Source: Bacteroides sp. (GTDB lineage Bacteria > Bacteroidota > Bacteroidia > Bacteroidales > Bacteroidaceae). Taken from it: a DNA stretch of 64,000 nucleotides. This document shows positions 721 to 18,765 of this stretch, one piece after another (the first letter of the stretch is position 1; each line of letters opens with the position of its first letter). The notes under the pieces were generated by a model. That model was not told the DNA's origin, made no database searches, and was given only the letters and a program-made list of their open reading frames with translations. Made by a program: the position numbers and the translations under genes. The stretch is taken from contig JAXFUC010000011.1 in the NCBI GenBank assembly GCA_034176395.1, positions 14,235 to 78,234 of the forward strand. Direction: 5' to 3'.

Positions 721-746
721 ACGAGTATCGATTAAAAGAGATGGAA

Positions 747-3074
747 CTATAATTGAATGCGATTGGCTATTATCCGGGCAGAAGAACGTTCAATAGGATC
801 GGATGCTTGGAAACTTTGCTGCCAAGCAGCAGTCTTGATTTCTCGCAAGGTTCCGAAAACTTGGATCAACAATTCAGAAGAATGTATTCGATTCTCCGCA
901 TCCAAAAGTTGCATCAAACGATCAACATAACTAATCTGCATCTGCCGTTTGAGAAGGGGGGTAATATCTCCCCTCTCCCATTCCTCGAATAACCCCTTTT
1001 GGAGACCTTTTAATACCTCTCCAGTAGTCAAATAATAGCCTTTCTGATCTACACGAAGAATCGCACGTATTAACCCCTCTATAAGCTCTTTTCGGCAACG
1101 ATCATACTCTTGTTGTACATCTATCTCAAGTCTATTAGTAAGCTCCTTATCAAAAAGTTCTCCTGGAGGATTCAGCACATAGGAACGGATAAAATCTAAT
1201 ACTCTATGAGAATACTCCCTACTCTCATTGGATAACTCTTCTTCATTGGGAACACGCAGGGTTTTCCCTCCAAGATGTTCATACACGTGTTGAACCCATT
1301 GAAGATAATGCTGCAAGACTGATTGATAGCGTCCTTGCCACACTCGTAAAGAGATCCTATCAAGAGGGCTCCACTCGTCTATTCGCCTGCAAATGCTCTT
1401 GAGGTTTTCAATGCCTTGCGAATTCGCTTCCACATGGTCATTACTCAAATCTTCTGCTTGCGCATACACATTTCCACCACCAGCGAAGGCCAATAATTGA
1501 TTTCTCTGCTGTTCTTGCTCCCACAATCGTCGAGCTTTATTTCTTTCCTCCATAGTTTTTCCTGGAAAAAGACGATATGCCCATTCGATGGCATACCTAT
1601 CATAATGCCCAATCTGTATACGGCGATTTCTCAAAGAAACGGTATCTTGAGGGCGTAGCACATAATTGTAGCGTACGTAATCCATTATGGATGTGCCAAT
1701 ACTATTTTTAGTCAAAAACTCATTATCTCGCAATTGCTCAATGCTGTAATGACTACTGCCTAAAAAATTATGCTCCAATCCCAGCGTATGCCCTATTTCA
1801 TGAGATAGAACAAACTTAATCACTTCATGCTGAATCGAGTCGGGCAGCACCACATTCCAAGCTGCGGAATCACTTGCCGCACACTGTGCAAAGTACCATT
1901 TCTGCAACAGGTTCATCACACTACTAAATATCCCAACGTGACAAGCTATAATTTCTCCGGAATAAGGTTCGCACGGCGTCGGCCCATAAGCATTATTTTG
2001 CCCAGAAATTTTCCAAGAGATGAAAGGGAAAGACGTATCATGAATCTGAAAACTATCTCCATTCTCCGCGATAGGAGCCAAACAAGCATCAATGGCATCT
2101 TGGAATCCAGCCTGTTCAAAAGCCGAACGCCAATCACGCACAGCTTCAATCATAGCCTGTGTAAACTGAGGTGGTGTATTGCGATCAATGTAGAATACGA
2201 TAGGATTGATCGGTTTCACAAGCTCTCCACGTTCATATCGGGCCTTATCTTCAGGAGATATTTCAAGTCTCCAACGTTTTATGATTCCGACTTGACGAGG
2301 AGATTCATTCTGAGAATAATATGTTTTGGGAATGGAAAAATAGCTTCCAGATGTTGCCAGAATATGCTCCAACGCAGATGACGGTAGCAATCTTACGCAA
2401 ATACCAGTACGCCACAAACCTACATAGGACGGGGGTGTAGGTTTACCCGGAAGTCCGAAGGAGGAACTTCGATAGCAACGATCAATGTTGAACAAAATAC
2501 GATCCGGATAAGACTTCCAGGAGTAAATCGAATCAAAATCTTGTAATCTACTCCCAATTTCCAAATCGAAAGAAGCCATATCTAATGTAAACAAGGAGTG
2601 ATTCTTTAGGAATGATCCCACTTCAACTAAGGATCTATCAGACTGGCGAGAGATTATTGGAAGATTAGCGTATAGCTTCTGCCTTTCACTCTGCTGTAGA
2701 ATGCGGGCATAACAATTCGAAGAATCTTCTACAACCTCCTCGTGAGGAATACTCATGACTTGTAGTTTGTCCCCTTCCTTTCTTAGTTTAAAGAATAAGG
2801 GGCCTATGATATCACCTGCATAGCCAAACTTTTTCTCCATGTTTCGCATTGGGCGAGCCGGTGTTTCTAGGAGAGTGGTTGTCACAACAAAGGAACGTTC
2901 CAACATCGAATCAGGTATCTCCCAATAAATCTGTTCACCGCTTTGATAAGCGGTGAACAGACCTGAGGCAAGACTCCTATATGTTTTCCCTGGGGGAAAA
3001 TCATCCATATTACGAGCACTGCCTACTAAGTGGAGAGAGAGCAACGTAAGTAAACTCAAGAGTATCCTCAACAT
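747..3074 (-). CDS. Zinc-dependent metalloprotease (metzincin-like, DUF5117/DUF4953 type)
   Basis: HEIGHTLGLEH zinc motif plus SIMDY Met-turn; signal peptide. ATG at 3074 preferred over TTG at 3080. Confidence 0.85.
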   Translation of the reverse strand: MLRILLSLLTLLSLHLVGSARNMDDFPPGKTYRSLASGLFTAYQSGEQIYWEIPDSMLERSFVVTTTLLETPARPMRNMEKKFGYAGDIIGPLFFKLRKEGDKLQVMSIPHEEVVEDSSNCYARILQQSERQKLYANLPIISRQSDRSLVEVGSFLKNHSLFTLDMASFDLEIGSRLQDFDSIYSWKSYPDRILFNIDRCYRSSSFGLPGKPTPPSYVGLWRTGICVRLLPSSALEHILATSGSYFSIPKTYYSQNESPRQVGIIKRWRLEISPEDKARYERGELVKPINPIVFYIDRNTPPQFTQAMIEAVRDWRSAFEQAGFQDAIDACLAPIAENGDSFQIHDTSFPFISWKISGQNNAYGPTPCEPYSGEIIACHVGIFSSVMNLLQKWYFAQCAASDSAAWNVVLPDSIQHEVIKFVLSHEIGHTLGLEHNFLGSSHYSIEQLRDNEFLTKNSIGTSIMDYVRYNYVLRPQDTVSLRNRRIQIGHYDRYAIEWAYRLFPGKTMEERNKARRLWEQEQQRNQLLAFAGGGNVYAQAEDLSNDHVEANSQGIENLKSICRRIDEWSPLDRISLRVWQGRYQSVLQHYLQWVQHVYEHLGGKTLRVPNEEELSNESREYSHRVLDFIRSYVLNPPGELFDKELTNRLEIDVQQEYDRCRKELIEGLIRAILRVDQKGYYLTTGEVLKGLQKGLFEEWERGDITPLLKRQMQISYVDRLMQLLDAENRIHSSELLIQVFGTLREIKTAAWQQSFQASDPIERSSARIIANRIQL

Positions 3075-3080
3075 AGCCAA

Positions 3081-4700
3081 CTATTCATAATTGAAGGTGA
3101 TATCTACAATCTTTGCAAACGGATTAGCGGCATCCTTATAAACACATATACTATTCTCAGCCTTACTCACGTCACCGGATGGGGTCATTTGTAGTTCAAC
3201 CACATAATTACCGTTTTGTCCATTTACTCCCAATCCCAAAGACATACCGTATTCCTCTAGGTTCTCGGGATCCTTGAACTTGAGACAGGAAATCACAGCC
3301 GTTTTATCTTCGTACTCATAAACTTTGGTGACTTTCTTACGGTCCAAATCTATCCGATACACCCCATTTCCAGAGCTCATAAACAACAAGTTGGATACGT
3401 AAGCGAAAGAGGCTGCAAAACGAGCACTTGATAGATCTGTCTCTGAAGGAAGACCTATTTGATATTGTGCAAAACAGGCTGCTTCTCCCCTTATTTCACT
3501 GAATTGAAAAACTGTAAGATTCTTACCTGCTACGTCTGATGCAATCGCATAGAGATAATTTCCATAACTTCCACTCACTATATCTTTAATGTCCAAATTA
3601 GGATCTACTTGATTGGGGTCAAAAACATTGGCTTGCGTTCCACTGACTTCAATCTCCCTTAAAATAGTATGCTTGTCGGACCACGGAGAATTGTACACAC
3701 GTATCGGTTGAGAGGGTACAGACATGAAATCAAATAACTGCAAGCCTATCTTTTTCAAGAATCTCCGTTTTCCTTTGTCAAAAAAGATAGCAGAAGAATA
3801 ACCAGAACCGTAGGCCGATATGGCAATAGGCTCTTCCGAATCCGATGTTCGTATGGAGAAAGGTACGGAGAAACCATCCATAGCCGCAAACCACGTTTTC
3901 TTAGAAGTAATGTAAAAATCTCCATGTCGAGCCATTTTATAATAGGAAACCGAACGATCCGCCGCATCAAATAAAACTTTATCCGAGGCATAACGAGTTT
4001 CCAACGTGCTAGGAGTAAACAGAGATGCTCCTTGATCTGTTGCAATCATCAATGCAGGATTTGCAGTAAATTTCCTAAAGCCAAACATCTGAGCAGCCTG
4101 TTTATTGCCATATTCTCGACGAGCATATATACTCAACGGCTTACCTTGCAGAGGAAAATCCTCCTTTCTTTCCGATTGAAAGAGATCTGGAAAAATATAA
4201 TAACCACTCGGCTTACCTTCCACAGCTCCCAACAATCCTTTACCGTCTTTCTCTTGCAAAACAAACCAGCAAGGATTGAAAGGTTTAACGATGCTAATTT
4301 TTCCTGTTTTATACCACTTAGTACCATTAATACGATCATGAACTACAAGCAATACGCCCACATCTGTATCCTGCAATGGTTCAATAATCACCCTACATTC
4401 TTTTCCGGTAGCAAAGCTTTCATAGTCATCCATATTTATCGAGCCAACTTCTTTTCCCGATTTTAGGATTCTCCATTGGTACTCTAAATTGGCTTCTTTC
4501 TGCTCCAACGTTTGAGATATGACGGGAGTAACCACGACTTCCACAGCCTCTTCCTTAGGCATACGCACCTTCATCTCCGGTAAATCGACCTCCACTGTAT
4601 TGATGACTTGGTAATTGTAGTTCCCTTTATCATCGTAACATGCTTGGTGTAGCAAGCTTGTCATCATGAGACAAGCCATGCTTTTCAAAAATGTCCTCAT
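3081..4700 (-). CDS. PKD-like family surface lipoprotein
   Basis: Lipobox ...LHQA-C followed by YDDKGNYNY, typical of PKD-like lipoproteins in SusCD loci; start moved to MRTFLK (4700). Confidence 0.7.
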   Translation of the reverse strand: MRTFLKSMACLMMTSLLHQACYDDKGNYNYQVINTVEVDLPEMKVRMPKEEAVEVVVTPVISQTLEQKEANLEYQWRILKSGKEVGSINMDDYESFATGKECRVIIEPLQDTDVGVLLVVHDRINGTKWYKTGKISIVKPFNPCWFVLQEKDGKGLLGAVEGKPSGYYIFPDLFQSERKEDFPLQGKPLSIYARREYGNKQAAQMFGFRKFTANPALMIATDQGASLFTPSTLETRYASDKVLFDAADRSVSYYKMARHGDFYITSKKTWFAAMDGFSVPFSIRTSDSEEPIAISAYGSGYSSAIFFDKGKRRFLKKIGLQLFDFMSVPSQPIRVYNSPWSDKHTILREIEVSGTQANVFDPNQVDPNLDIKDIVSGSYGNYLYAIASDVAGKNLTVFQFSEIRGEAACFAQYQIGLPSETDLSSARFAASFAYVSNLLFMSSGNGVYRIDLDRKKVTKVYEYEDKTAVISCLKFKDPENLEEYGMSLGLGVNGQNGNYVVELQMTPSGDVSKAENSICVYKDAANPFAKIVDITFNYE

Positions 4701-4720
4701 ATGCAAAAAATACATGTGTT

Positions 4721-5395
4721 TTAGAATTGAATTTCATTCCCCTTATCATCAACGATCGGAGGGTTTCCACTTTCCTTATACTTTGTGTACGCTGCTACTA
4801 CCGTATCACAATCATCTGCTGTCATTTCTTTATAAGTACGTCCCATAACATCCATCATGAAGATATACTTGGCATCGCTGTAATCTCCCCAAGGCCATTC
4901 TTCCCAATCGGAAGGACGCAAATTCCAACTTACATGCACCACTAAGCGATGTTTTTCTATCAAGCCTTTGGCAAATTTATGGTTGGGATTCAACAAATCG
5001 AACTCAAGGAAACAACCATAAACCTTCTTATCTGCCTTCAGTTCCGGACGAATAATTTTATAGGGGAACTTCTGTACTACATCTGTCAAGTTGGTATAGG
5101 TGTACGCTTTCTCAAGGGAAATTTCCACCGGATTATCGTAATCTGTATTTTCAACAGTTTTGACACAGAAGGTTTTTGCCTCAGACAAATGTGTTCCTTG
5201 AATACGCACTTGAAAGCTATCAACCAAGAAAGGAGTTTTCTTCACGTAATCACTATCGACAAATTCAATAGCAGTGCGATAGGAATAAAAGTTGATGCGA
5301 GCCTCCTGATCATAAAGCTCTATCTCCTGTTCCTTACAACTCTGATAAAGCCCCCCCATCAACAAAACACCCAATATGTATATTAACTTCTTCAT
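4721..5395 (-). CDS. DUF4843-like lipoprotein
   Basis: Lipoprotein signal (YQS-C-KEQEI); C-terminal WGDYSDAKYIFM motif; sits directly after SusD. Confidence 0.7.
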   Translation of the reverse strand: MKKLIYILGVLLMGGLYQSCKEQEIELYDQEARINFYSYRTAIEFVDSDYVKKTPFLVDSFQVRIQGTHLSEAKTFCVKTVENTDYDNPVEISLEKAYTYTNLTDVVQKFPYKIIRPELKADKKVYGCFLEFDLLNPNHKFAKGLIEKHRLVVHVSWNLRPSDWEEWPWGDYSDAKYIFMMDVMGRTYKEMTADDCDTVVAAYTKYKESGNPPIVDDKGNEIQF

Positions 5396-5407
5396 AATCG
5401 AACTGTA

Positions 5408-6913
5408 TTAAAGGTTATTCCCGAAGATCTTCTCATTGTCGGGAATCGAAATCTGATACTCTTTGTCGGTCATTTCCTTCACACCACAACCGTAATAATA
5501 AGAGTAGTTGTGTGCCTTCAAATAATAGAATAATTGACCTTCAGCAAAGTATTCTTTTCTCACTTCTTTCATAATCTCATTTATACGCTTTGTTTGAGAA
5601 GGTGCTTCTTTGGACGATTGGTCTACATCGTCGTATTTTTCAGTTGAGATTGCATCTCCGTATGAAATACCTCTGGCAAAACGAACCGCATTGAGCGCCT
5701 CAACACTGGCTGTAGGATCTTTCTCACACTCTGCTACGATATAGTACATTTCCGGTAAACGGATAAGAGGGATTGTATTAAGTCCCGTTTCTGAAGAAAG
5801 TGGTTTCTGATTGTATTTGCGGCAGAAGAAATAAATATTGCTTCCTCTGCTTTGTTCAAACATCTCCGGATTCTTTCTCCAATCGGTACTTCCCAATCCA
5901 TCACGTTCGTAGAATTGGGTAAATCGCTCATTAGAAACCACAAAGCCTCTTTGGATATTCGTTTCCTCCATCTTCATGTTATTCTTGTCGAGCAAATCCC
6001 ACAGCTGATCGACAGACAAACCAAAAATTTGCTCCCCATAACGAATCGAGTTGTAATCGGCCAGGCTTTGAGCTGTGTACAACGTGAAGTTCTTATTGTC
6101 AATCACTTCTCTTGCATAAGTCACCGCTTTGGATTTACTCTGCTCATCGCCTTTATAACAATACACACGAGCTAACATAGCCTTCACAGCAATGAGATTC
6201 ATACGATATTCTCTGCTCGCTAAGAACGGATCCATCTCCGCATATTCTTCTCCGGAGTGATTGATAAAAAAGACCTGAGAATCGGATTTTGCCAATAGAG
6301 CCTCGGCTTCAAGAAGATCTTTCAAAATAAGAGACACCACTTCCTCTGCACTCAATATAGGTGTAGGAGTTTTGTCGAAGTTCGTCCGATAAGCAATCGC
6401 TTTCTCTTTAGGATTCTTTTGATATATGGGACCAAACAGTCTCAACAGGTCAAAATGTAGGAATGCTCTCAATCCCAAAGCTTCTCCCCTGAACAGCTCA
6501 TAATAACCTTTGGTTCGCAAGACATCTCGTCTTTTCTCGGTCTGTTCCAACAAGCTATTAATGTTTACAATAATGTTGTAGAGGTTATTATATATGGTAT
6601 TCTTCTTATCCTTCATCTTATTCTCATAATCAAATAAGATCTTTTGATTATGAAGTGTGGGATCATCCTCTACGCCGGGATAATTAGAATACAAACCGGC
6701 TAAACCGTCCACATAACCATAAGTCAGTTCTCCGGCATAGAGCCCAACTGTTCCCATCTTCAGATAGATTCCTGTCAACGCATCTTTGAAGCCGGCTTGC
6801 GATTCAAATAATTTATCTTTCGGGATAGAAGTTTTGGGATCTACGTTCAGCCAGTCATTACATGAAGAGAGCCCCAACAAAATAACTAATGCATATATAC
6901 ATATATTCTTCAT
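5408..6913 (-). CDS. RagB/SusD family lipoprotein
   Basis: SS-C-NDWLNVDP lipobox; GEALGLRAFLHFDLLRLFGP, IPLIRLPEMYYIVAE and EVRKEYFAEGQ SusD motifs. Confidence 0.92.
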   Translation of the reverse strand: MKNICIYALVILLGLSSCNDWLNVDPKTSIPKDKLFESQAGFKDALTGIYLKMGTVGLYAGELTYGYVDGLAGLYSNYPGVEDDPTLHNQKILFDYENKMKDKKNTIYNNLYNIIVNINSLLEQTEKRRDVLRTKGYYELFRGEALGLRAFLHFDLLRLFGPIYQKNPKEKAIAYRTNFDKTPTPILSAEEVVSLILKDLLEAEALLAKSDSQVFFINHSGEEYAEMDPFLASREYRMNLIAVKAMLARVYCYKGDEQSKSKAVTYAREVIDNKNFTLYTAQSLADYNSIRYGEQIFGLSVDQLWDLLDKNNMKMEETNIQRGFVVSNERFTQFYERDGLGSTDWRKNPEMFEQSRGSNIYFFCRKYNQKPLSSETGLNTIPLIRLPEMYYIVAECEKDPTASVEALNAVRFARGISYGDAISTEKYDDVDQSSKEAPSQTKRINEIMKEVRKEYFAEGQLFYYLKAHNYSYYYGCGVKEMTDKEYQISIPDNEKIFGNNL

Positions 6914-6926
6914 AGCATCTATTTAT

Positions 6927-9900
6927 TTAGAATCCTACATTCAAAGAGAAAGTAAATTGTCGAGCATAGGGATATGTCAATCCCCTTTCACGTTTAACGG
7001 TAGAGAGATAAAAGAAATCTTCCATATTAAACGCTACTTTGGCAGAACTCAAGCCCCAACGCTCGATAAGTTTACAGTTCTTTCGGTCCATGCGATAGTA
7101 AAGAGAACAAGAGCTACCTTGTAGGACATTCTCATCCATGATAAACCTCGAAGTAGCTTTCGTATTAGAGCCTGCATGATCCAGGCTCAGGAAACGAGAG
7201 TGGTCTCCGGGCTGCTTCCAGCGCAATTCCGTTACTCGACGATCTGCGTTTTGTTTCAAATCTGCATTCTCAACCTTATCCAATAACGTTTGATTATACA
7301 CCTGTCCACCAAATCGATACCTCACACTTATATCTGCTCCCCATCCCATGTAGGTGAATGAAGAGTTGATATATCCTTGCCAACGAGGCTCAGTATTGCC
7401 GATAGGCACCACGTCTGTGGGATCCCACTTGAGATGACTTGTCATTTCACCGTTCCGTTTGAGGAGTATTTCTTCGCCCGATGCAGGATCGATACCCAAG
7501 GAGCGGACCACCCAAATACGTGACAATGAATGACCTTCCTCATAGCGTGGCAGGGGAGTATTAGTTAAATTCCCCGCATTCAACTCATTAATGTGACGCA
7601 TCGCTTCAGAAATCTTCACCAACTTATCGCGGTTATGAGAACCGTTCAAACTAATAGTCCAATAAGATTGTTTACTTAGGTTACGATAAGGTATGGCCGA
7701 AAGAGTGACTTCCCAACCTCGGTTCTCTATTTCCCCTAAATTCTCCGGATATTGAGAGAACCCTATTGATGGAGCCAAGCTAACTTGAGTAACCATATTG
7801 TTAGTTACCTTACGGTAGCGCTCTATGCGAGCCGAAAGTCGTTGGTCAAATAAGCCTAATTCAAGGGCTAAATTCAGATTACGAGTAGATTGCCATCTCA
7901 AGTTTTCGTTGTGCATGCCTAGCAATTCTGCCCCCGTTGCATCCGAACCGTAATAGGGACGAAGCAAATTAGCATACGTATAATAGCTATGTGCTTGATA
8001 AGGATTGAAACCTTGAGAACCTACCGTACCAATCGTGCCTCTCAATACCAAGTCGGAAAGGAAAGAGACATTCTTGAAAACCTTTTCTTTCTTCAAATCC
8101 CAACGAAGCCCTGCCGACCAAAATGGAGCCCACCGATTGTTACGACCAAACACCGAAGAACCATCCAAACGAACATTAAAGTCTACCGAATACTTGTACT
8201 TGTAGGAGTATCCTCCAGCCAACACCCAGCCAACAGAGCGGCTTGTTTGTTCAAGCCCCGTGACTTTCTCACTGTATCTCTTTCCAAACAGAAGGTTATC
8301 CATATTGTCGTTAGGAAAGCCTATTACATAAGTCCCATATGTTTCACTCATGTCGCTCATGAGATTCATGCGAGCATTGGCCGTTAAATAATGATCGTGC
8401 AATTGCTTGTTCCAACTTGCGGTGAAGTCAACAGCCCATTTCACCGATTCGCTTTGACTACGGCGATAGTCTCCTTTCTTCTCCGGATTCACCTCTTTGT
8501 CAAATGCGGTGTGCTGTGCCGAACGGAAGATATCTCTATGCCCTACGCTCTTGGACAAAGAAAATGCTCCTTCCAAACGCAGGTCCTTGGTGGCATGATA
8601 CTCCACCTTGAACAGCTCACGCACAGTGAAGTTCTTGCCTTGATCCTTGCTTTTAAAGGTTGTATTGTACATGGGATTGGCATAACTTGTATAGGTCGTG
8701 CTTCCATGCAAAGCTCTAAAGTCATCTAATCTCTTATTGATTTCCCCATTCTCCCCATAAGGTCTTAGATAGGGATTCAGAGTGGTGTACTCACTGAATT
8801 GTCCCCACGGAGATTCGTCGGCCACCGAATTTTCGATGGTGATACTATTCTTCAGCAATAGGTTTTTTAGGCGGTACTGGAAGTCGAGCACGCCGGTTAG
8901 CACGTCGCGCTTACTTTGTTTCATCACACCGGGCGAAGAGTTATAGCCCACGTACATGCGGTAGCGAAGGGCTTCATCGCCACCTTCGAGGGTAAGTGTG
9001 TGGCGTTGTTGCAAGGCGGTTCGCAGCGGCTTCGACAACCAATACGTGTCGACGCCCGAGAGCACTTCTCGCAATTTGGATTCGTACAGCTCGGCCTTCT
9101 CGATGGTTTCGCCACCATAGGTATAAAGGCCCGAGAGTCGCTCGGCTTCTATCTTCTCTTTAGCATTCATCAGGTTGTAACCGGTCAGGTCGGGGGTTTC
9201 CACTCGCAACTCACCGCTGTATGTGGCCCAGAGTCGGCCGGGCTTGGGAGTTTTGCTTTCGATAACGATGACTCCGTTGGCTGCCCGTGATCCGTAGATG
9301 GCGGTTGCGGCGGCATCCTTCAACACTACGATGGACGATACGCGATCGGGGTCGAGGTCGGCCAATGTCTGCACACTGATCTCAAAGCCGTCCATGATGA
9401 GCAGGGGCTGATTGGCATAGGTTTCGTATTCGCCTTGCAGGCTCAGCAGGTCATCGCCTCCGCCTCCCAAGTCGAGATTGGCACCGCCTCGCATACGCAA
9501 ATCGGGGCGACTGTTGGGGTTGGAACCCATATTGATGTTGTCCACCAGGTTCAATCCCGGAGCCACTGCGGCCAGTGCCTTGGCTACGTTGGTGGTGCTG
9601 TATTTCTTAAGGTCTTCGCCCTTCACAGTGACAGCCGAGCCGGTGAAGCCTTCCTTCTTACGGTTGAACATACCGGTCACCACCACTTCGTCGAGAACCT
9701 TTGCATCGGGCTTCATGGATACGGCCAAGTCGGATGCAGCTTGCAGCTCCTGAGCTTGCATTCCCACAAAGGAGATGAGAATGATGCTGCCTTGAGGCAC
9801 GTTGGTGAAGGTGAACTGGCCTTCGTTGTTGGTAATGGTTCGCAGGTCGGTATTACCCACTTGAACCGTTGCTCCGATGATGGGAAAGCCATCTTCTTCC

Positions 9901-10259
9901 GAAATGACCCGACCGTTGACCGTGGCAATGGCTTTCTTCTCTCCCTGGCGAGTGACGTTGACAAAGCGCCCGTCCACGTTGTACTTCAACGGATGTTTGC
10001 CTATGATCGCTTTCATAGCTTCGTCGATGGAGGCATTTTTCACTTTGCCCGTTGCTTTGTAGGCATTGATTTCATCGTAAATAAAGAGCACTTTGTAAGA
10101 GCTCACCTTCTCCAGCCGCTTGAAAATGGCCGGCAAACTCTCATTCGCAAACTCCAAATCGATGCGTTTCTCCTTTCCTTGCTGGGCTTGCAGGGGCGGC
10201 ACAGCCAGTAGGAAAAACAGTAGGAGGGCAAGGATGCCCTGCATTCGCTTTGTTCTCAT
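6927..10259 (-). CDS. SusC/RagA TonB-dependent transporter with N-terminal STN signalling domain
   Basis: Signal peptide, STN-like domain, carboxypeptidase-regulatory-like domain, LKDAAATAIYGSRAANGVIVI plug motif, C-terminal Phe. Confidence 0.95.
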   Translation of the reverse strand: MRTKRMQGILALLLFFLLAVPPLQAQQGKEKRIDLEFANESLPAIFKRLEKVSSYKVLFIYDEINAYKATGKVKNASIDEAMKAIIGKHPLKYNVDGRFVNVTRQGEKKAIATVNGRVISEEDGFPIIGATVQVGNTDLRTITNNEGQFTFTNVPQGSIILISFVGMQAQELQAASDLAVSMKPDAKVLDEVVVTGMFNRKKEGFTGSAVTVKGEDLKKYSTTNVAKALAAVAPGLNLVDNINMGSNPNSRPDLRMRGGANLDLGGGGDDLLSLQGEYETYANQPLLIMDGFEISVQTLADLDPDRVSSIVVLKDAAATAIYGSRAANGVIVIESKTPKPGRLWATYSGELRVETPDLTGYNLMNAKEKIEAERLSGLYTYGGETIEKAELYESKLREVLSGVDTYWLSKPLRTALQQRHTLTLEGGDEALRYRMYVGYNSSPGVMKQSKRDVLTGVLDFQYRLKNLLLKNSITIENSVADESPWGQFSEYTTLNPYLRPYGENGEINKRLDDFRALHGSTTYTSYANPMYNTTFKSKDQGKNFTVRELFKVEYHATKDLRLEGAFSLSKSVGHRDIFRSAQHTAFDKEVNPEKKGDYRRSQSESVKWAVDFTASWNKQLHDHYLTANARMNLMSDMSETYGTYVIGFPNDNMDNLLFGKRYSEKVTGLEQTSRSVGWVLAGGYSYKYKYSVDFNVRLDGSSVFGRNNRWAPFWSAGLRWDLKKEKVFKNVSFLSDLVLRGTIGTVGSQGFNPYQAHSYYTYANLLRPYYGSDATGAELLGMHNENLRWQSTRNLNLALELGLFDQRLSARIERYRKVTNNMVTQVSLAPSIGFSQYPENLGEIENRGWEVTLSAIPYRNLSKQSYWTISLNGSHNRDKLVKISEAMRHINELNAGNLTNTPLPRYEEGHSLSRIWVVRSLGIDPASGEEILLKRNGEMTSHLKWDPTDVVPIGNTEPRWQGYINSSFTYMGWGADISVRYRFGGQVYNQTLLDKVENADLKQNADRRVTELRWKQPGDHSRFLSLDHAGSNTKATSRFIMDENVLQGSSCSLYYRMDRKNCKLIERWGLSSAKVAFNMEDFFYLSTVKRERGLTYPYARQFTFSLNVGF

Positions 10260-10303
10260 AATAAGTAAGACAGGTTAATTTTTGTTTCATTTCTTTTATT
10301 TTA

Positions 10304-10332
10304 TACGATTTTAAGAGCCGATTCGGTTACCC
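10304..10332 (-). promoter_or_regulatory. Putative ECF-sigma promoter for susC (GGGTAACC-N17-CGTA)
   Basis: Minus strand reads GGGTAACC gaatcggctcttaaaat CGTATAA, about 45 bp upstream of the susC ATG; near-identical motif upstream of fecR. Confidence 0.65.
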
Positions 10333-10508
10333 ATCGCTTGCTTTTTTCACAAGAAAATCGAAAGAATTATCTACAATCCACCCGGCGATCGCGCGATAAA
10401 CAACAGAGAAACAGATTATAACACCGACAATCAAGCAATCTAAAAAACATGCGACCGACAAACGGAGCATCGGCCGACCAAACGACGAATGCAAACACTC
10501 GACTCGGT

Positions 10509-10596
10509 GAGTGCCCACACTTTGCGTCCCAAGTGCCTACACTTTGCGACCTAAGTACCCACACTTTGAAACCTAAGTGCCCACACTTTGAAACTT
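10509..10596 (+). repeat. Tandem array of four 22-bp units (core AAGTGCCYACACTTTG)
   Basis: Units start at 10509, 10531, 10553, 10575: gagtgcccacactttgcgtccc / aagtgcctacactttgcgacct / aagtacccacactttgaaacct / aagtgcccacactttgaaactt. Confidence 0.92.
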
Positions 10597-10686
10597 GGAT
10601 ACAGACACCCGCCATGCACCCGTCCTCGTGCCCGGACAAGAATTGTAAATGCTTGGTATAGACAGCACAGTTTCAATAGAAACGAT

Positions 10687-10694
10687 TATCTTTG
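10687..10694 (+). promoter_or_regulatory. Bacteroidota housekeeping promoter -7 element (TATCTTTG)
   Basis: Matches TAnnTTTG, 35 bp upstream of ATG 10729. Confidence 0.6.
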
Positions 10695-10728
10695 CCCATT
10701 CCAAACGATAAATACTCAGTTATCACGT

Positions 10729-11865
10729 ATGTCTATCACCATTCATAAGGTCGTAACCAAGGATGAGCTGAAGAAATTCATCCGCTTCAATTACGAGTTC
10801 TATAAGGACAATCCCTATTCCGTTCCCGATCTCTATCCCGATATGCTCTACACGCTCGACCGCAATAGGAACGCAGCGTTCGAATTCTGCGAGGCCGACT
10901 ACTTCTTAGCCTATCGCGACGGCAAGATTGTAGGCCGGGTGGCAGCCATCATCAACCATCGAGCCAACGAGAAATGGAACACCAAGCACGTTCGCTTCGG
11001 GTGGATAGATTTCGTGGACGACCCCGAAGTATCGACAGCCCTTTTGCAGGCAGTCGAGAATTGGGGCCGCGAACGTGGCATGACCCACATCAACGGCCCA
11101 CTGGGCTTTACCGATTTCGACGCCGAGGGTATGCTCATCGAGGGCTTCGACCAGCTCAGCACGCTGGCCACCATCTACAATCACCCTTACTATCCTCTGC
11201 ACATGGAGCGACTGGGCTTTGAGAAAGACGCCGACTGGGTGGAGTATCAGATTTACATTCCCCAGAGCATCCCCGACAAACATCGACGCATTGCCGAACT
11301 GGTGCAGCAGAAGTACGGTTTGCAGATAAAAAAATACCGCTCGAACAAGAAAATTGCACGTGAATACGGACAGGCCATCTTCGAGCTACTCAACGAGTCT
11401 TACGGCGACTTATACGGCTTCTCGCCCTTGTCGCCACGGCAGATCGAGCACTACATGCGCATGTTCTTGCCCATTGTGGATCTGCGCATGGTGACGCTCA
11501 TCACCGATTCCGAAGGGCTGTTGGTGGGTGTCGGCATTTCGATGCCCTCACTGTCCGAAGCTTTGCAAAAGGCCAAAGGCAAATTGTTTCCCTTGGGCTG
11601 GTTTTATCTCTTCAAAGCCCTCTTCATGAAGCGCAGGGCCAAGATGCTCGATTTGTTGCTGGTGGCCGTGAAACCCGAATATCAAAACAAAGGTGTCAAC
11701 GCCTTGCTGTTTGCCGACCTCATTCCGGTTTATCAGCAATTGGGCTTCACTTATGCCGAAAGCAACCCCGAGTTGGAGCACAATGGCAAGGTGCAAGCCC
11801 AGTGGGACTACTTTGAAACCCGCCAACACAAAAGACGACGAGCCTACATCAAACCCATCGGCTGA
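10729..11865 (+). CDS. GNAT-like N-acetyltransferase (YghO-like)
   Basis: [13 protein letters not shown]...RFGW.DF, GPLGFTD.D.EGML, YNHPYY motifs. The longer ORF-track start (10588) runs through the repeat and lies upstream of the promoter. Confidence 0.75.
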
Positions 11866-11926
11866 ATACCGATCGAAGACCTCTCGCCCGCTATCACCCT
11901 TCTCTCATCAATCGGACATCGAACAT

Positions 11927-13795
11927 ATGGAACACCTCAATACGCCTATCCAAGAGTCGGTTGCCTACACCGACGACAACATTCGCCACCTCAGCGACAT
12001 GGAGCACGTGCGTACACGCCCGGGCATGTACATCGGTCGGCTGGGAGATGGAGCGCATGTCGAGGACGGCATCTACGTCCTACTCAAGGAAGTGATGGAC
12101 AACAGTATCGACGAGTTCAAGATGAATGCCGGCAAACGCATTGAGATTGTCGTCGAAGACCAGCTGCGCGCCAGCGTTCGCGACTACGGTCGAGGCATTC
12201 CTCAAGGCAAGCTCATCGAGGCCGTAAGTGTGCTCAACACCGGAGGTAAGTACGACAGCAAAGCATTCAAAAAAAGCGTGGGCCTCAACGGCGTGGGTGT
12301 CAAGGCCGTCAACGCTTTGAGCATACGATTCGAAGTGCGCAGTTATCGCGACGGCCAGGTGCGTACGGCCATCTTCTCCAAAGGGATTCTACAAAGCGAT
12401 GAAACCCGCCCCACGAACGAGGAGAACGGAACGTTCATCTTCTTCCAGCCCGACGATACGCTCTTTACCGGCTATCGTTTCCGAGAGGAGTTCATCGAAA
12501 CCATGTTGAGAAACTATACCTATCTCAACACCGGCCTTACCATATTATATAACGGGCAACGAATCCTATCGCGCAACGGCCTTGCCGATTTGCTGAACGA
12601 CAACATGACTTCCAACGGGCTGTACCCAACGATACACCTCAAAGGCGAAGACATCGAGATCGCTTTCACCCACACCGGACAATATGGCGAAGAATACTAC
12701 TCCTTTGTCAACGGGCAACACACCACCCAAGGCGGCACGCACCAAAGTGCATTCAAAGAACACATAGCACGCACCATCAAAGAATTCTTCAACAAAAACC
12801 AGGATTATACCGACATTCGCAACGGGCTGGTGGCAGCCATTGCCATCAATGTGGAAGAGCCGATATTCGAGAGTCAAACCAAGACCAAACTGGGCTCTAC
12901 CAACATTGCGGCCGGAGGCATCAGCGTGAACAAACACGTGGGCGACTTTGTGAAGCAAGAGGTAGACAACTACCTGCATAAGCATGGCGACGTGGCCGAG
13001 GTCATGCTACAAAAGATTCAAGAATCCGAGAAAGAACGGAAGGCCATTGCCGGCGTCACCAAGTTGGCTCGCGAGCGTGCCAAGAAAGCCAATCTGCACA
13101 ATCGCAAGCTAAGAGATTGCCGCGTACACCTCAACGACCCCAAGAGCAAGGAGCTGGCCGAAGAGTCGTGTATCTTCATCACCGAGGGCGACTCGGCCAG
13201 CGGTTCCATCACCAAGAGCAGAGATGTCAACACTCAGGCCGTGTTCAGCCTGCGGGGAAAACCACTGAATACGTTTGGATTGACCAAAAAGGTGGTATAC
13301 GAGAACGAAGAGTTCAACCTGCTGCAAGCGGCACTCAACATCGAAGAAGGTTTGGACGGACTGCGCTACAACAAAGTGATTGTGGCCACCGATGCCGATG
13401 TGGACGGTATGCACATCCGCCTGCTACTCATCACTTTCTTCTTGCAATTCTTCCCCGACCTTATCAAAAAAGGCCATGTGCACATCCTGCAAACTCCTCT
13501 TTTCCGGGTGCGCAACAAGCGAAAGACCATCTACTGCTACACCGAGGACGAACGCATCAACGCCATAGCAGAGTTGGGGCCCAACCCGGAAATAACGCGT
13601 TTCAAGGGTCTGGGCGAAATCTCCGCCGACGAATTCGGGCACTTCATAGGCAAAGATATGCGTCTTGAACAGGTGACCCTTCGCAAAACCGATGCGGTGA
13701 AAGACCTCTTGGAATTCTATATGGGGAAGAACACCTCGGAAAGACAAAACTTTATCATCGACAACTTAGTAATCGAAGAAGATTTAGCCTCATGA
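11927..13795 (+). CDS. parE: DNA topoisomerase IV subunit B
   Basis: [16 protein letters not shown] ATPase [35 protein letters not shown] and DADVDG; start at MEHLNT. Confidence 0.93.
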
Positions 13796-14247
13796 CACGC
13801 CGCGCCATATTCCCCGGAACATTCGACCCATTCACCGTAGGCCATGCCTCTATCGTCAACAGGAGCCTTGGGTTTATGGACGAACTCATCATCGGAATAG
13901 GAATCAACGAAAACAAAAACACCTATTTCCCTATCGAGAAACGCGAAGAGATGATACGCCGACTCTATGCCCATGAGCCACGAGTGAAGGTGGTGAGCTA
14001 CGACAACCTTACGGTAGATCTGGCCAAACAATGGGAAGCCCGCTTTATCATACGTGGCATTCGCACGGTGAAAGACTTTGAGTACGAAGAGACCATCGCC
14101 GACATCAATCGCAAGCTCGAGGGCATCGAGACCATACTCCTCTTCACCGAGCCCGAGCTTACCTGCGTCAGCTCTAGCGTGGTGCGCGAGCTACTGAGCT
14201 TCGGCAAAGACATCAGCCGTTTTCTACCCGAAGGCATGACCATCTGA
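13792..14247 (+). CDS. coaD: Pantetheine-phosphate adenylyltransferase
   Basis: [31 protein letters not shown] motifs; overlaps the parE stop by 4 bp. Confidence 0.96.
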
Positions 14248-14259
14248 TCCTCCCGACGC

Positions 14260-14790
14260 ATGAAGTCATCCGCTCACAATCACCCAACCCACGACACGTT
14301 CGATCAAACGTTTCAACAGTGGTATGAGCCGTTGGTCTACTTTGCCCACTACTTTACCAAGGACCTTGAAGTGGCCAAAGATTTGGTGAGCGATGCCTTC
14401 GAATACCTATGGGTCAACAACGAACGTCTCGACCCCACCACCGTCAAAGCCTATCTCTACTCCATCGTCAGGGCGCGGTGTATCGACCATCTGCGAAAGA
14501 AAGACATCCATGAACGCTACATCGACTTTGCCACCGAGCTAAGCCAACACTTGGCCGAACGGCAAGTGGACAGTGACGAGCCTCGCATTGCAGCCATTCG
14601 CCGAGCGATGCAAAAACTCACCCCCTACAATGCCCACATTCTGGAAGAATGCTATTTGAACAATAAGAAATATAAGGAAGTGGCCCAGCAACTCAATGTC
14701 AGCGTGGCAGCCATCCACAAAAATATCGTCAAAGCACTGCGCATTCTACGGCAAGAATTAACCGAGCAGGGTAACCAAAAGGCTACTTAG
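14260..14790 (+). CDS. ECF-type RNA polymerase sigma-70 factor (Bacteroidota SusC-associated type)
   Basis: Region 2 (AKDLVSDAF..LW, YLYSIVRARCIDHLR) and region 4 HTH (YKEVAQQLNVSVAAIHKNI); precedes fecR. Confidence 0.9.
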   Translation: MKSSAHNHPTHDTFDQTFQQWYEPLVYFAHYFTKDLEVAKDLVSDAFEYLWVNNERLDPTTVKAYLYSIVRARCIDHLRKKDIHERYIDFATELSQHLAERQVDSDEPRIAAIRRAMQKLTPYNAHILEECYLNNKKYKEVAQQLNVSVAAIHKNIVKALRILRQELTEQGNQKAT

Positions 14791-14796
14791 TTCGTA
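14769..14796 (+). promoter_or_regulatory. Putative ECF-sigma promoter for fecR (GGGTAACC-N16-CGTA)
   Basis: GGGTAACC aaaaggctacttagtt CGTATTAA overlaps the sigma gene 3' end, about 35 bp upstream of ATG 14832. Confidence 0.65.
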
Positions 14797-14831
14797 TTAA
14801 CTTATATGTTCCCTTGAAAAGAAACTCGGTA

Positions 14832-15998
14832 ATGAACGAAGAAATACTCTCCATCAGCCCTTCGGAGGAAAGAGCCATCGACCTCATGCAGGCGACGTCG
14901 GACATCGACCTCGAACAGTCGGAGCAGCTGCCACCCGATGCCGACAGTCTGGAGGCCTGTCTCGACATTGCCGAGATTCAACTCTTCCTTCAGCAACAAC
15001 GGCACCCCTTGCCGCTGAACACAGCCGAGGAACTGAGAAAGTTCCACCAAAAACAACAGAAAGCACCTGCTCGCACCACCTTGTATCGTTGGCTCATACC
15101 GGCCTTGACCGCGGCAGCTTCGTTGCTACTCCTTTGGCTCGTCCGCATCGACAAGCCGCAACCCATGCAACAACCCACGCCCATCGCCGTATTCCGTGCC
15201 GACACATCGGCCGCCAAGCATCCGCTACTCACCACTTTTGAGCAAGACACCGAACAGGGAATCACCTGCCCCACCTCCACCGACGCAGGCACCTACCTAC
15301 ACGATTCCAAGCTCGACTATCGCAACCTACAAGCCACCACGACCCTCTACGAAGGGAAAAACCGCATCCACCGGCTGAGCATACCACGCGGCGAAACCTT
15401 CAGCGTCCTCTTGTCCGACGGCACCGAGGTTTATCTCAACACTGACAGCCGCCTCACCTACCCCGCAGTTTTCAAAGGCAATCGCCGCATAGTGAAACTC
15501 GAGGGCGAAGCCTACTTCAACGTAGCCAAGGATGCTACACGCCCATTCATCGTCGAAACCGGTAACCTACAAGTGGAGGTCTTGGGCACCGAATTCGATA
15601 TATGTAACTACGGCAACCTGCCGGCACGCATCACTCTCTTGACCGGACAGGTGGCTGTGAAGGATGCCGACAACGCCGAGCTTACCTATATGAAACCGGG
15701 CGAAAGCCTACAAATAGACCAAGACGGTACACGTACCCTGACACAAATAGACCCCGAAGCCAATATCTATTGGCGCGAAGGCTACTTCTACTTTGACAAT
15801 GTCACGCTGGCCGAAATGATGCAAGAAATCGGACGTTGGTACAATATCGACGTGGATATAGCCAACGAGCAGCTCACCGCCCTACGCCTACATTTCTTCG
15901 CCAACCGTAAACAAGGCATCGAGCAAGTTATTACCCAGCTCAACCGTATGGAAAGCATCCATGCACGGCTGGAGAATGGCAAGCTCCTCATCCATTGA
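14832..15998 (+). CDS. FecR-family anti-sigma factor
   Basis: Single TM segment; LSIPRGETFSVLLSDGTEVYLN..S.L.YP, LEGEAYFNV and VLGTEF FecR motifs; DUF4974-like C-terminus. ATG 14832 preferred over TTG 14814. Confidence 0.9.
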   Translation: MNEEILSISPSEERAIDLMQATSDIDLEQSEQLPPDADSLEACLDIAEIQLFLQQQRHPLPLNTAEELRKFHQKQQKAPARTTLYRWLIPALTAAASLLLLWLVRIDKPQPMQQPTPIAVFRADTSAAKHPLLTTFEQDTEQGITCPTSTDAGTYLHDSKLDYRNLQATTTLYEGKNRIHRLSIPRGETFSVLLSDGTEVYLNTDSRLTYPAVFKGNRRIVKLEGEAYFNVAKDATRPFIVETGNLQVEVLGTEFDICNYGNLPARITLLTGQVAVKDADNAELTYMKPGESLQIDQDGTRTLTQIDPEANIYWREGYFYFDNVTLAEMMQEIGRWYNIDVDIANEQLTALRLHFFANRKQGIEQVITQLNRMESIHARLENGKLLIH

Positions 15999-16164
15999 CC
16001 GCGTGCCGGGCTTCTGCACTTTCCATTCCTACCCTCAGCAAGCCCCAAGCACCGCTCCCCACAAATAGGTAGCGAGCATGGAAATTCGTACCTACTTCTC
16101 GCTATTTTCGCCCCCTCATCCACAGAAAAAAAACGACCCACTACTTCGTAGTAAAGGAAACATG

Positions 16165-16172
16165 TACTTTTG
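16165..16172 (+). promoter_or_regulatory. Housekeeping promoter -7 element (TACTTTTG)
   Basis: TAnnTTTG match 44 bp upstream of the TonB receptor ATG. Confidence 0.6.
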
Positions 16173-16215
16173 TATCGCATTTTTAACACACACATATATC
16201 CCTTTCTATTGAACT

Positions 16216-18765
16216 ATGAAACAAATCGTGCTTGCCCTTTTCGCGGCTTTGCTTAGCATCGGTCTGCTGCATGCAGAAGAAAACAATTCCAAACCCAAAA
16301 CAGATGCCCACATCGTGGGACACGTCATTGACCAGGCCACCGGCGAACACATACCGGGTGTAAGCATTCTCATCAAAGGCACAACCATAGGCACTGTGAC
16401 CGACCAAACGGGTCACTACCGAATGATCAACTTGCCCGTAGGAACCAAAACGTTGGTGATGAAAGCCATCGGCTACAAGACTCAAGAGCGAACCGTAGAA
16501 GTGAAACGCGGTGTGACCTTGGAAATCAATTTCCATTTGGAGGAAGACATTGCAGCACTCGACGCAGTGGTCGTATCGGCCAACCGCACCGAAACCACCC
16601 GTCGCCTGGCTCCCACACTCGTAAACGTTATCGACACCAAGCTGTTTGCGGCTTCCAATGCCAACAACCTGGCACAAGGCGTAATCTTCCAACCCGGGGT
16701 GCGCGTGGAAAACAACTGTCAGAACTGTGGCTTCAACCAAGTGCGCATCAACGGAATGGACGGACGCTATACACAAATCCTCATCGACTCACGCCCCATC
16801 ATGAGTGCCTTGGCAGGCGTTTACGGGCTGGAACAGATACCCACCAACATGATCGAGCGTGTGGAAGTAGTACGCGGAGGAGGCTCGGCCCTCTTCGGCT
16901 CATCGGCCATTGCAGGGGTGTTGAACATCATCACCAAAGAGCCTACACAGAATTCGTTCATGGTCAACGAATCATTGGGCTTCACCGGCATGAAGAAACT
17001 CGATAACAATCTCTCTTTCAACGGCTCACTTGTCAGCGACGACCAACGCGCCGGTGCCATGTTCTTCGGACAAATGAGAAAGCGCGCCGCTTGGGACAAA
17101 GACGGAGATGGCTTCTCCGAACTGGGAGAGATCGACGCCCGATCGCTGGGAACACATTTGTATTTCCGCCCATCCGACTACAGTCGCATCACTGCCGAAG
17201 TACACGGAATACAGGAAGACAGAAGAGGTGGCGACCACGTAGACGAGGCTTGGCCCGAACACGTGGCTGCCGTGGCCGAGGCCACCAGACACTCGGTGTA
17301 CAGCGGCAATGTCAAATACGATCTGCGTTCGGCCGACACGAAACATCACTTCCAAGCCTACGCATCCTCACAACTTGTCAATCGTAAGAGCTACTACGGA
17401 GGTATAGGCGATTTGGAAGGACACGGAACATTGGGCAAGCCCATCGTTCCCTCCAAGTATGGCATCAACTACGGCGTCACCAAAGGACAAACCCATATGG
17501 GAGGCTTGCAATATTCTTACGATTTTGACCGCTTCCTCTTTATGCCCGCCCAAATCTTGGTGGGTGCAGAGTACACACACGATCGCCTGAACGACGTGAT
17601 GCCCATCCGTAGCTGGATAGTATCGAAAACCGGCGAAGCCATGTATCCCGAGCTGAAACAACGCATCAACAACTGGAGCCAGTTTGCCCAACTGGAGTGG
17701 AAGAATGCGCGCTGGAGCCTACTCATGGGTGTTCGTGTGGACGAGCATTCGGAAGTTAAGAAGGCCATCCTTAGCCCTCGTGCCACTTTGCGCTACAACC
17801 CCACTCAAGACATCAATTTGCGAGCCACCTATGCCAAAGGCTTCCGTGCACCCCAAGTCTTTGACGAAGACCTGCACGTGGGCGTAGTGGGAGGCGAAGC
17901 ACAAAAGGTCTTCAACGTATCCAACCTCAGACCCGAGGTAAGTCACGCCTTCAGCTTGAGCGCAGACCTCTATCGCCGTTTCGGAGAGGTTCAAACCAAC
18001 CTCTTGGTCGAAGGCTTCTATACACGCCTCACCGATGTGTTCACCCTTCAAGAGCTGGACAACCGGAACGATGGCATCAAACGCTACAACCGCACCAACG
18101 GAAGCGGCGCCAAAATCATGGGTGCCAATGTGGAAGGTAAGCTGGCTTTCCGCCGCATCCAACTGCAAGCCGGCCTCACACTGACCTCCAGCAAATTCGA
18201 CCAAGAAGAAGAATGGGGCGAACGCACCCTGCTCACTACCACCGATGGGCTGCCGGCCAAAGACGGTTCGAACTTCAAGAAAGATGCCGACGGAGTGTTT
18301 GAAACCGAGAAACAAAACAGCCGTGAGATGCTACGCACTCCCAACACCTACGGCTACTTCACCCTGGGCTGGAATCCCACCAATGCTTTGACTCTCGCAC
18401 TGACCGGCACTTATACCGGCACAATGAAAGTACACCACGAGATTGAGTGGGGCGTAGGTTCGGCCTTGACAGACATTCAAGCCATCGCCAACGGTACACG
18501 CACAGCGGGCGTAGTGGATGCAAGCAACAGCGCACCTCGCTGGGACGAGCTTGTCAACACCCCATCGTTCTTCGACTTGGGCGCCAAAGCCAGCTATGAC
18601 TTTGCCCTCACCTCGGCCACTCGCCTACAACTGTATGCCGGCATGAACAACCTCTTCAATTCGTTCCAAAAAGACTTCGATCGAGGTGCCAGCCGTGCCA
18701 GTGGCTACATCTACGGGCCTACTCAGCCCCGAAGTTTCTACATGGGTTGTAAATTTAGTTTCTAA
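16216..18765 (+). CDS. TonB-dependent receptor (non-SusC, CirA/FepA-like) with CxxC in the plug
   Basis: Signal peptide, carboxypeptidase-regulatory-like domain, RVENNCQNCGFNQVRING, IERVEVVRGGGSALFGSSAIAGVLNIITK, C-terminal Phe; no SusD follows. Confidence 0.92.
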   Translation: MKQIVLALFAALLSIGLLHAEENNSKPKTDAHIVGHVIDQATGEHIPGVSILIKGTTIGTVTDQTGHYRMINLPVGTKTLVMKAIGYKTQERTVEVKRGVTLEINFHLEEDIAALDAVVVSANRTETTRRLAPTLVNVIDTKLFAASNANNLAQGVIFQPGVRVENNCQNCGFNQVRINGMDGRYTQILIDSRPIMSALAGVYGLEQIPTNMIERVEVVRGGGSALFGSSAIAGVLNIITKEPTQNSFMVNESLGFTGMKKLDNNLSFNGSLVSDDQRAGAMFFGQMRKRAAWDKDGDGFSELGEIDARSLGTHLYFRPSDYSRITAEVHGIQEDRRGGDHVDEAWPEHVAAVAEATRHSVYSGNVKYDLRSADTKHHFQAYASSQLVNRKSYYGGIGDLEGHGTLGKPIVPSKYGINYGVTKGQTHMGGLQYSYDFDRFLFMPAQILVGAEYTHDRLNDVMPIRSWIVSKTGEAMYPELKQRINNWSQFAQLEWKNARWSLLMGVRVDEHSEVKKAILSPRATLRYNPTQDINLRATYAKGFRAPQVFDEDLHVGVVGGEAQKVFNVSNLRPEVSHAFSLSADLYRRFGEVQTNLLVEGFYTRLTDVFTLQELDNRNDGIKRYNRTNGSGAKIMGANVEGKLAFRRIQLQAGLTLTSSKFDQEEEWGERTLLTTTDGLPAKDGSNFKKDADGVFETEKQNSREMLRTPNTYGYFTLGWNPTNALTLALTGTYTGTMKVHHEIEWGVGSALTDIQAIANGTRTAGVVDASNSAPRWDELVNTPSFFDLGAKASYDFALTSATRLQLYAGMNNLFNSFQKDFDRGASRASGYIYGPTQPRSFYMGCKFSF

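Follow-up and report, generated by a model that had tools for sequence, protein, structure and literature searches.

A Bacteroides-type trans-envelope signalling system that controls a peptidase-containing SusCD locus, and whose genes have been pulled apart by rearrangement, is our reading (probability about 85%) of a group of genes in a 64,000-nucleotide stretch of Bacteroides sp. DNA, referred to below as the window (GenBank assembly GCA_034176395.1, contig JAXFUC010000011.1, positions 14,235 to 78,234 of the forward strand). It is a known, ordinary kind of system in an unusual gene order, and both of its conserved, predicted promoters survive. The genes and sites concerned are the following (window coordinates; ECF, extracytoplasmic function).

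6927-10259, minus strand: SusC/RagA-type TonB-dependent transducer of 1110 residues, with signal peptide, STN-like signalling domain, NTE domain, plug and barrel (TIGR04056, Pfam)
9948-10163, minus strand: STN-like (FecR_C-like) N-terminal signalling domain of SusC, residues 33-104 (Pfam, structure model, orthologue identity)
10303-10332, minus strand: predicted ECF promoter before susC, with GGGTAACC as -35 box, a 17-nt spacer and CGTAT as -10 box, 44 nt from the susC ATG
10510-10590, no strand: 22-bp tandem array, 3.7 copies of a genome-dispersed repeat, between the susC and GNAT promoters
10687-10694, plus strand: TATCTTTG, Bacteroidetes housekeeping -7 box before GNAT, candidate promoter of a GNAT-parE-coaD-sigma transcript
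10729-11865, plus strand: GNAT-family acetyltransferase, 378 residues
11927-13795, plus strand: type IIA topoisomerase B subunit (parE/gyrB-like), 622 residues, with a 4-nt overlap with coaD
13792-14247, plus strand: coaD, pantetheine-phosphate adenylyltransferase (TIGR01510, 167 bits against a cut-off of 103)
14260-14790, plus strand: ECF sigma factor, 176 residues, 12 bp after coaD and lacking a promoter box of its own
14769-14797, plus strand: predicted ECF promoter before fecR, with GGGTAACC as -35 box, a 16-nt spacer and CGTAT as -10 box, 35 nt from the fecR ATG
14832-15998, plus strand: FecR-type anti-sigma factor, 388 residues (Pfam FecR, FecR_C)

A survey of 250 genomes of the genus yielded an orthologous FecR (E 1e-85 or better) in 19 genomes other than that of the window, and in 18 of these 19 loci sigma, fecR and susC follow one another in that order on one strand, SusC being the orthologue of the window's protein in 14 of the 18. 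The whole peptidase locus lies downstream in both loci fetched at full length (genomes G002 and G017), whose colinear block shares with the window 60-61% identity in sigma, 43-45% in FecR, 73.5% in SusC, 60% in SusD, 49-51% in the DUF4843 protein, 47-49% in the PKD_2 protein and 51-53% in the Met-zincin. When searched back from G002, sigma, FecR, SusC and the STN region alone each returned the window's genes as best match. A reading made earlier from the letters of the window (the sequence-only reading) had held that one module is split here, and this claim is borne out by the reciprocal best matches of sigma, FecR and STN-bearing SusC to a single contiguous module in G002. The genome contains about nine FecR genes, and most of its paralogous systems are likewise ordered sigma, fecR and STN-susC on one strand, so that elimination alone cannot pair the two halves in the window; orthology can. 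FecR paralogues in the same genome are at most about 37% identical, and the SusC signalling domain is ~62% identical in the orthologous loci, against 30% or less for the N-termini of paralogous SusC proteins of the genome. From the reciprocal orthology to adjacent pairs, we infer that the C-terminal domain of FecR pairs with the N-terminal domain of SusC. Gene order and motifs are unchanged in eight independent assemblies (98.7-100% identical), which excludes a misassembly. A second STN-bearing SusC of this genome (contig C118:9033-12428) shares 38% identity with that of the window; neither a sigma nor a FecR match was found on its 19-kb contig, and it may belong to another separated module.

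The three proteins have the domain architectures of such a system. The sigma factor contains only sigma-70 regions 2 and 4 (Pfam Sigma70_r2, 47 bits; Sigma70_r4_2, 41.6 bits) and matches the superfamily model TIGR02937 (83.6 bits against a cut-off of 42.9), as ECF (group 4) proteins do. FecR shows the anti-sigma architecture, with a cytoplasmic N-terminal part, a single hydrophobic membrane segment at about residues 86-106, and periplasmic FecR and FecR_C domains (PF04773, 64.6 bits; PF16344, 53.2 bits). SusC belongs to the SusC/RagA family (TIGR04056, 584.8 bits against a cut-off of 368.25; TIGR04057 signature, 51.8 against 46.2; SusD-like gene adjacent) and has a 112-residue N-terminal extension, the TIGR04056 core starting at residue 113. 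The STN-type domain ascribed to it earlier is found in this extension, as a match to Pfam FecR_C (PF16344, residues 35-100, 34.8 bits against a cut-off of 24.4) and as a PupA-like fold, with Pfam STN itself sub-threshold. An AlphaFold2 model of residues 1-205 (mean predicted local distance difference test score 82) contains two domains, the first of which superposes on the periplasmic signalling domain of PupA (2a02; target-normalised template modelling score 0.75, root-mean-square deviation 2.1 Å) and the second on the NTE domains of the SusC proteins BT3090 and BT1762. As modelled, SusC is a predicted TonB-dependent transducer with an STN-type signalling domain ahead of its plug.

The shared promoter motif proposed in the sequence-only reading is present at the positions given there, as GGGTAACCaaaaggctacttagttCGTAT before fecR and as GGGTAACCgaatcggctcttaaaatCGTAT before susC. 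In the former, the -35 box lies inside the last sigma codons and the -10 box just past the sigma stop codon. ECF promoters typically contain AAC in their -35 box and CGT in their -10 box. The extended 13-base motif, GGGTAACC-N15-18-CGTAT, has two matches in the whole genome of 2,192,758 bases, both of them in the window, and no match was obtained when the window was shuffled 100 times; GGGTAACC alone occurs 19 times genome-wide. The lax form, GGTAAC-N16-20-CGTA, has 11 occurrences in the genome, which is about background, and the significance of the motif therefore rests on the extended boxes and on their positions before the susC and fecR start codons. The genome-wide motif scan proposed earlier as a check is thus informative for the extended motif, which is unique to the two sites, but not for the lax one. 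In this genome, a weight matrix trained on 10 sites, all from other genomes, also gave its two highest scores, 25.2 and 21.1 bits, to the window sites. The next four matches (18.7-19.9 bits), three of which are inside coding sequence and the fourth of which overlaps a start codon, provide no credible further members of the regulon.

The bipartite motif is kept in the relatives. GGTAAC[C/T]-N16/17-CGTA was found at both places, namely at the sigma 3' end before fecR and before susC, in all 19 orthologous loci, and when the promoter regions were aligned, the columns without variation were concentrated in the two boxes, the surrounding non-coding DNA having diverged. The sites before the transducer operon and before the anti-sigma gene are thus predicted promoters, whose conservation agrees in silico with the earlier proposal that the protease SusCD locus, some 4 kb away, is under the control of sigma. 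Less closely related loci (L019, L100-L102 and contig C99 of the same genome) have box variants of their own at the same two positions: GTACCC/CGTGT in L019 and, in the paralogous sigma-fecR-susC locus at C99:10300-11700, GGGGGTGACC at the sigma 3' end and upstream of susC, which is the same two-promoter layout with different boxes. Such locus-specific variants are what sigma-specific promoters would look like. The G+C content of the fetched loci is 37-42% in many relatives, compared to about 51% here. A generic gapped-motif score comparing the sigma 3' end with the susC upstream region in 34 loci did not separate from the AT-rich background (10-11/13 common) and was uninformative, and we make no claim from it for the distant loci. 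Two further observations concern these regions. A TTAAC element (window 10270-10285, minus strand), some 12-25 nt before the susC ATG and outside the boxes, is invariant in all nine aligned orthologous leaders, and the orthologous fecR of one genome (G053; locus L131, C1:1019645-1020814) contains one in-frame TAG, with both promoter motifs intact.

As described in the sequence-only reading, sigma starts 12 bp after the end of coaD. No TAnnTTTG box is present on the plus strand from 13277 to 14260, and with one mismatch allowed the last 460 nt before sigma hold only TAGATCTG. A terminator scan found no terminator-like site between coaD and sigma (the accompanying E. coli-type promoter scan is uninformative for Bacteroidetes, and the terminator part alone was used). 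Given the short gap and the lack of both a box and a terminator-like site, read-through from the housekeeping operon is plausibly the simplest source of basal sigma factor, which fits the model of priming by housekeeping transcription of Martens et al. 2009 (PMC2709373). The sigma genes of G151 and G002 each come with a TAnnTTTG box of their own. Co-transcription of coaD and sigma, and sigma-dependent transcription from both motifs, are predictions from these features.

The closest relative for the module, G151 (sigma 71%, FecR 49% and SusC 80% identical; fetched loci with ~49-53% G+C), indicates how the split arose. In this genome, the susC operon and sigma-fecR are divergent yet adjacent, about 740 bp apart, with both motifs present and with sigma preceded, at about 40 nt, by a housekeeping -7 box (TATCTTTG), and GNAT-parE-coaD is on another contig. 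All 8 other relatives examined have kept the GNAT-parE-coaD trio, never with the orthologous sigma after it, and in the three relatives checked, a box precedes GNAT, as TATCTTTGCC in G151 and as TATCTTTG in G002, G017 and the window. The divergent state of G151 and the conserved promoter of GNAT indicate that susC and sigma were divergent before the trio came to lie between them. Although earlier described as displaced, the sigma/FecR pair was on this evidence not itself moved. The comparison indicates that the trio, together with its promoter, came to occupy the interval from the susC promoter to the sigma start codon, and that the promoter of sigma was thereby removed. The likely history would be a colinear arrangement (18 of 19 relatives), then a divergent adjacent one (G151), then a split one, with the trio and its promoter lying in between (the window's species).

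An inversion between short repeats was considered as the mechanism and rejected. An 11-nt perfect inverted repeat (TTCAATAGAAA at 10672-10682 and TTTCTATTGAA at 16203-16213) brackets exactly the GNAT-to-fecR segment, but a stretch of 6.1 kb should contain about four such pairs by chance, and this one is probably among them; moreover, the divergence seen in G151 predates the housekeeping genes, which came with GNAT's own promoter. The 22-bp array sits in the left breakpoint interval only, and its repeat was not found downstream of fecR. Its unit (AGTGCCCACACTTTGCGACCTA) belongs to a dispersed family whose core, GTGCCCACACTTTG, has ~375 copies (at most 2 mismatches) on 86 contigs; the examples inspected were in short arrays with a 22-bp period or in non-coding DNA.

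The following mechanism would account for these observations. Having lost its own housekeeping promoter, the sigma gene would come fourth on a GNAT-parE-coaD-sigma transcript that starts at the GNAT promoter (-7 box at 10687-10694), and this would supply sigma at a basal level. The FecR-like anti-sigma factor would hold sigma at the inner membrane, as shown for its homologues, and its periplasmic C-terminal domain would contact the STN-like domain of the SusC protein encoded 4.5 kb away on the other strand, a pairing suggested by orthology. Transport of the substrate would lead to release of sigma, and the freed sigma may then direct RNA polymerase to the only two GGGTAACC-N16/17-CGTAT promoters of the genome, as motif conservation suggests. 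One of these would drive the susC, susD, DUF4843, PKD and metallopeptidase genes, and the other fecR, providing feedback on the anti-sigma factor. The wiring could survive the separation because it depends on two short promoters and on protein-protein specificity, not on adjacency. The usual one-locus arrangement of trans-envelope signalling genes is absent here, with GNAT, parE and coaD intervening and susC on the opposite strand; this concerns gene order, not mechanism.

Several points weigh against this interpretation. The score of sigma against TIGR02985 (Bacteroides expansion family 1), 117.1 bits, is under the curated cut-off of 126.4, although this is its best-scoring family, and the Pfam STN score of SusC is 17.1 bits against a cut-off of 28.4. 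An atypical internal promoter within coaD, beyond the reach of a consensus scan, could possibly serve sigma. FecR is just 43-50% identical to its orthologues, and its partner specificity could have drifted. The last point, together with the separation of the genes, the loss of the sigma promoter and the lesser divergence of SusC (73-80% identical to its orthologues), would also fit a sigma/FecR pair that is an orphan remnant without signal from the distant SusC, the locus being constitutive, silent or otherwise regulated. We consider this unlikely. All three proteins are intact, the STN-like domain is kept with a confidently modelled fold, and both boxes are exact while other non-coding DNA differs from that of the relatives. 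Furthermore, FecR is equally diverged from all 19 orthologues, including the colinear ones, which points to fast evolution of the family and not to decay after the split.

It is quite improbable that the two motifs are sites of another DNA-binding protein or remnants of a duplicated segment and not promoters for this sigma factor. GGCT and TTA are common to both spacers and could hint at shared descent, but across the 19 loci the spacer of the fecR site shows no conservation with that of the susC site. The motifs have the AAC and CGT signatures of ECF promoters, a 16-17 nt spacer and a position 35-44 nt before start codons, and in loci of other sigma lineages the same two positions are occupied by other boxes. 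A promoter before the anti-sigma gene also matches the situation in B. thetaiotaomicron, where the anti-sigma genes are induced and the sigma genes are not (PMC2709373).

The cargo genes and the neighbourhood of fecR comprise the remaining features.

1-720, minus strand: 5' part of a second Met-zincin paralogue (DUF5118; PF17162), the last gene of the locus seen, continuing past the window start
747-3080, minus strand: Met-zincin peptidase-like protein (DUF4953 with DUF5117 and DUF5118; Pfam), with a same-position orthologue 52% identical in G002 and 62% in G151
3081-4715, minus strand: PKD_2-family protein (Pfam)
4721-5395, minus strand: DUF4843-like protein (Pfam, 33.9 bits, slightly under the cut-off of 34.5)
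5408-6913, minus strand: SusD-like lipoprotein (SusD-like_3, SusD_RagB)
16067-16113, plus strand: terminator-like hairpin 3' of fecR, with a 10-bp stem followed by UUUUCG (z-score -2.4)
16165-16172, plus strand: TACTTTTG -7 box before the neighbouring receptor gene
16216-18765, plus strand: TonB-dependent receptor without STN domain (generic, haem/siderophore-receptor-like), probably outside the module

The minus-strand genes from susC through the second Met-zincin form one tight operon arrangement, and a second Mzincin-like match lies downstream in G002 and G017 too. No known RNA family was detected between 9800 and 16400 in an Rfam search. The receptor adjoining fecR lacks an STN domain, as stated in the sequence-only reading, its signal peptide being followed directly by CarbopepD_reg_2 at residue 33. 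Its gene starts 217 bp after fecR on the same strand in all assemblies of the species that reach it, but a re-pairing of FecR with this receptor, which would enter the regulon by read-through from the fecR promoter, is the least probable of the alternatives, given that the receptor has no STN-like domain to contact FecR, that a terminator-like hairpin and the receptor's own TACTTTTG box intervene, that no matrix match above 14 bits lies upstream of it, and that its gene was not found beyond fecR in the orthologous loci examined. The receptor is probably unrelated to the signalling module.

The composition of susC and its conservation both change along the gene, at different points. The G+C content is 0.51-0.57 in its 5' third, as in the surrounding region, and only 0.38-0.46 in the remainder and the entire downstream operon (window 1-8600), with a step at 8600-8800. 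Identity of SusC to G002 and G017 steps at about residue 200, from 52-62% in STN and NTE to 70-84% in plug and barrel. Four genomes of the genus share the sigma, FecR, promoter and STN-NTE head, 51-61% identical to the window (loci L017, L018, L138-L140 and L142 versus L109, L128 and similar; L017 and L018 seem to be identical with the loci of two of these four genomes). In the two head-sharing loci compared at full length, the plug and barrel are of another kind (26-45% identity) and SusD differs as well, which suggests that regulatory heads may be exchanged between transporters at the NTE/plug boundary.

In B. thetaiotaomicron, the sigma genes are on housekeeping promoters, the anti-sigma and locus genes are induced, and the N-terminal domain of a SusC binds only the C-terminal domain of its cognate anti-sigma factor (PMC2709373). 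The window shares with the polysaccharide utilization locus (PUL) systems described there the three components and their domain architectures, an anti-sigma gene and a transporter operon behind (here predicted) ECF-type promoters, and a sigma gene that depends (here presumably) on housekeeping transcription, and its relatives share the colinear order of sigma, anti-sigma and susC. It differs in that susC is divergent from sigma-fecR with three housekeeping genes between, in that sigma has no housekeeping promoter of its own and is joined onto the parE-coaD operon, and in its cargo, which consists of predicted metallopeptidases with no glycoside hydrolase or lyase seen. At the BT1032-53 locus of B. 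thetaiotaomicron, the transducing SusC BT1042 is also not beside BT1052/53, yet it is within the same locus. The logic is that of E. coli FecI/FecR/FecA and of the Pseudomonas Pup and Fpv systems, in which a TonB-dependent transducer with an N-terminal domain is combined with a FecR-type anti-sigma factor and an ECF sigma factor, and the modelled N-terminal domain of the window's SusC superposes on the PupA signalling domain. In contrast to these systems, the transducer of the window is a 22-strand transporter of the SusC/RagA type that carries an additional NTE domain and is partnered by a SusD, its likely substrate is a peptide or glycoprotein and not an iron chelate, and sigma is in the Bacteroidetes FecI-like clade. 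SigW-1 (BT1817) of B. thetaiotaomicron, which controls part of PUL59 (PMC12596196), is likewise an ECF sigma factor encoded apart from the SusCD genes under its control. However, SigW-1 is a member of a different ECF group and not a cognate regulator that became displaced, whereas orthology indicates that sigma/FecR and SusC of the window were once one module.

Non-adjacency within a locus (BT1042 and BT1052/53) and control of a SusCD locus by a distant ECF sigma (SigW-1) are already known; what is new here is that essential housekeeping genes interrupt the module, that the sigma gene has lost its own promoter and that an explicit promoter consensus is given for the lineage. The underlying biology is the known paradigm of trans-envelope signalling, and the gain is incremental. 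A comparative study of 2013 called the prediction of ECF-controlled Bacteroides promoters challenging and in need of mapped start sites (PMC3878776), and the present comparison provides such a consensus with comparative support, (G)GGTAACC-N16/17-CGTA(T/A), for a single lineage of the ECF sigma factors associated with Bacteroides loci. An annotation pipeline that assigns sigma and anti-sigma genes to whichever TonB-dependent receptor is closest would wrongly link this regulator with its STN-less neighbour. On balance we lean towards the view that the ECF sigma gene of a nutrient-sensing switch, after loss of its own promoter, has been captured by an essential-gene operon (parE-coaD), that its basal priming level would follow housekeeping transcription, and that three genomes preserve the colinear, divergent and split steps. 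They offer a natural three-step series for asking how much genomic separation a cell-surface signalling module tolerates. If the interpretation holds, trans-envelope modules can be physically uncoupled while two promoters of about 30 bp and the protein contacts persist.

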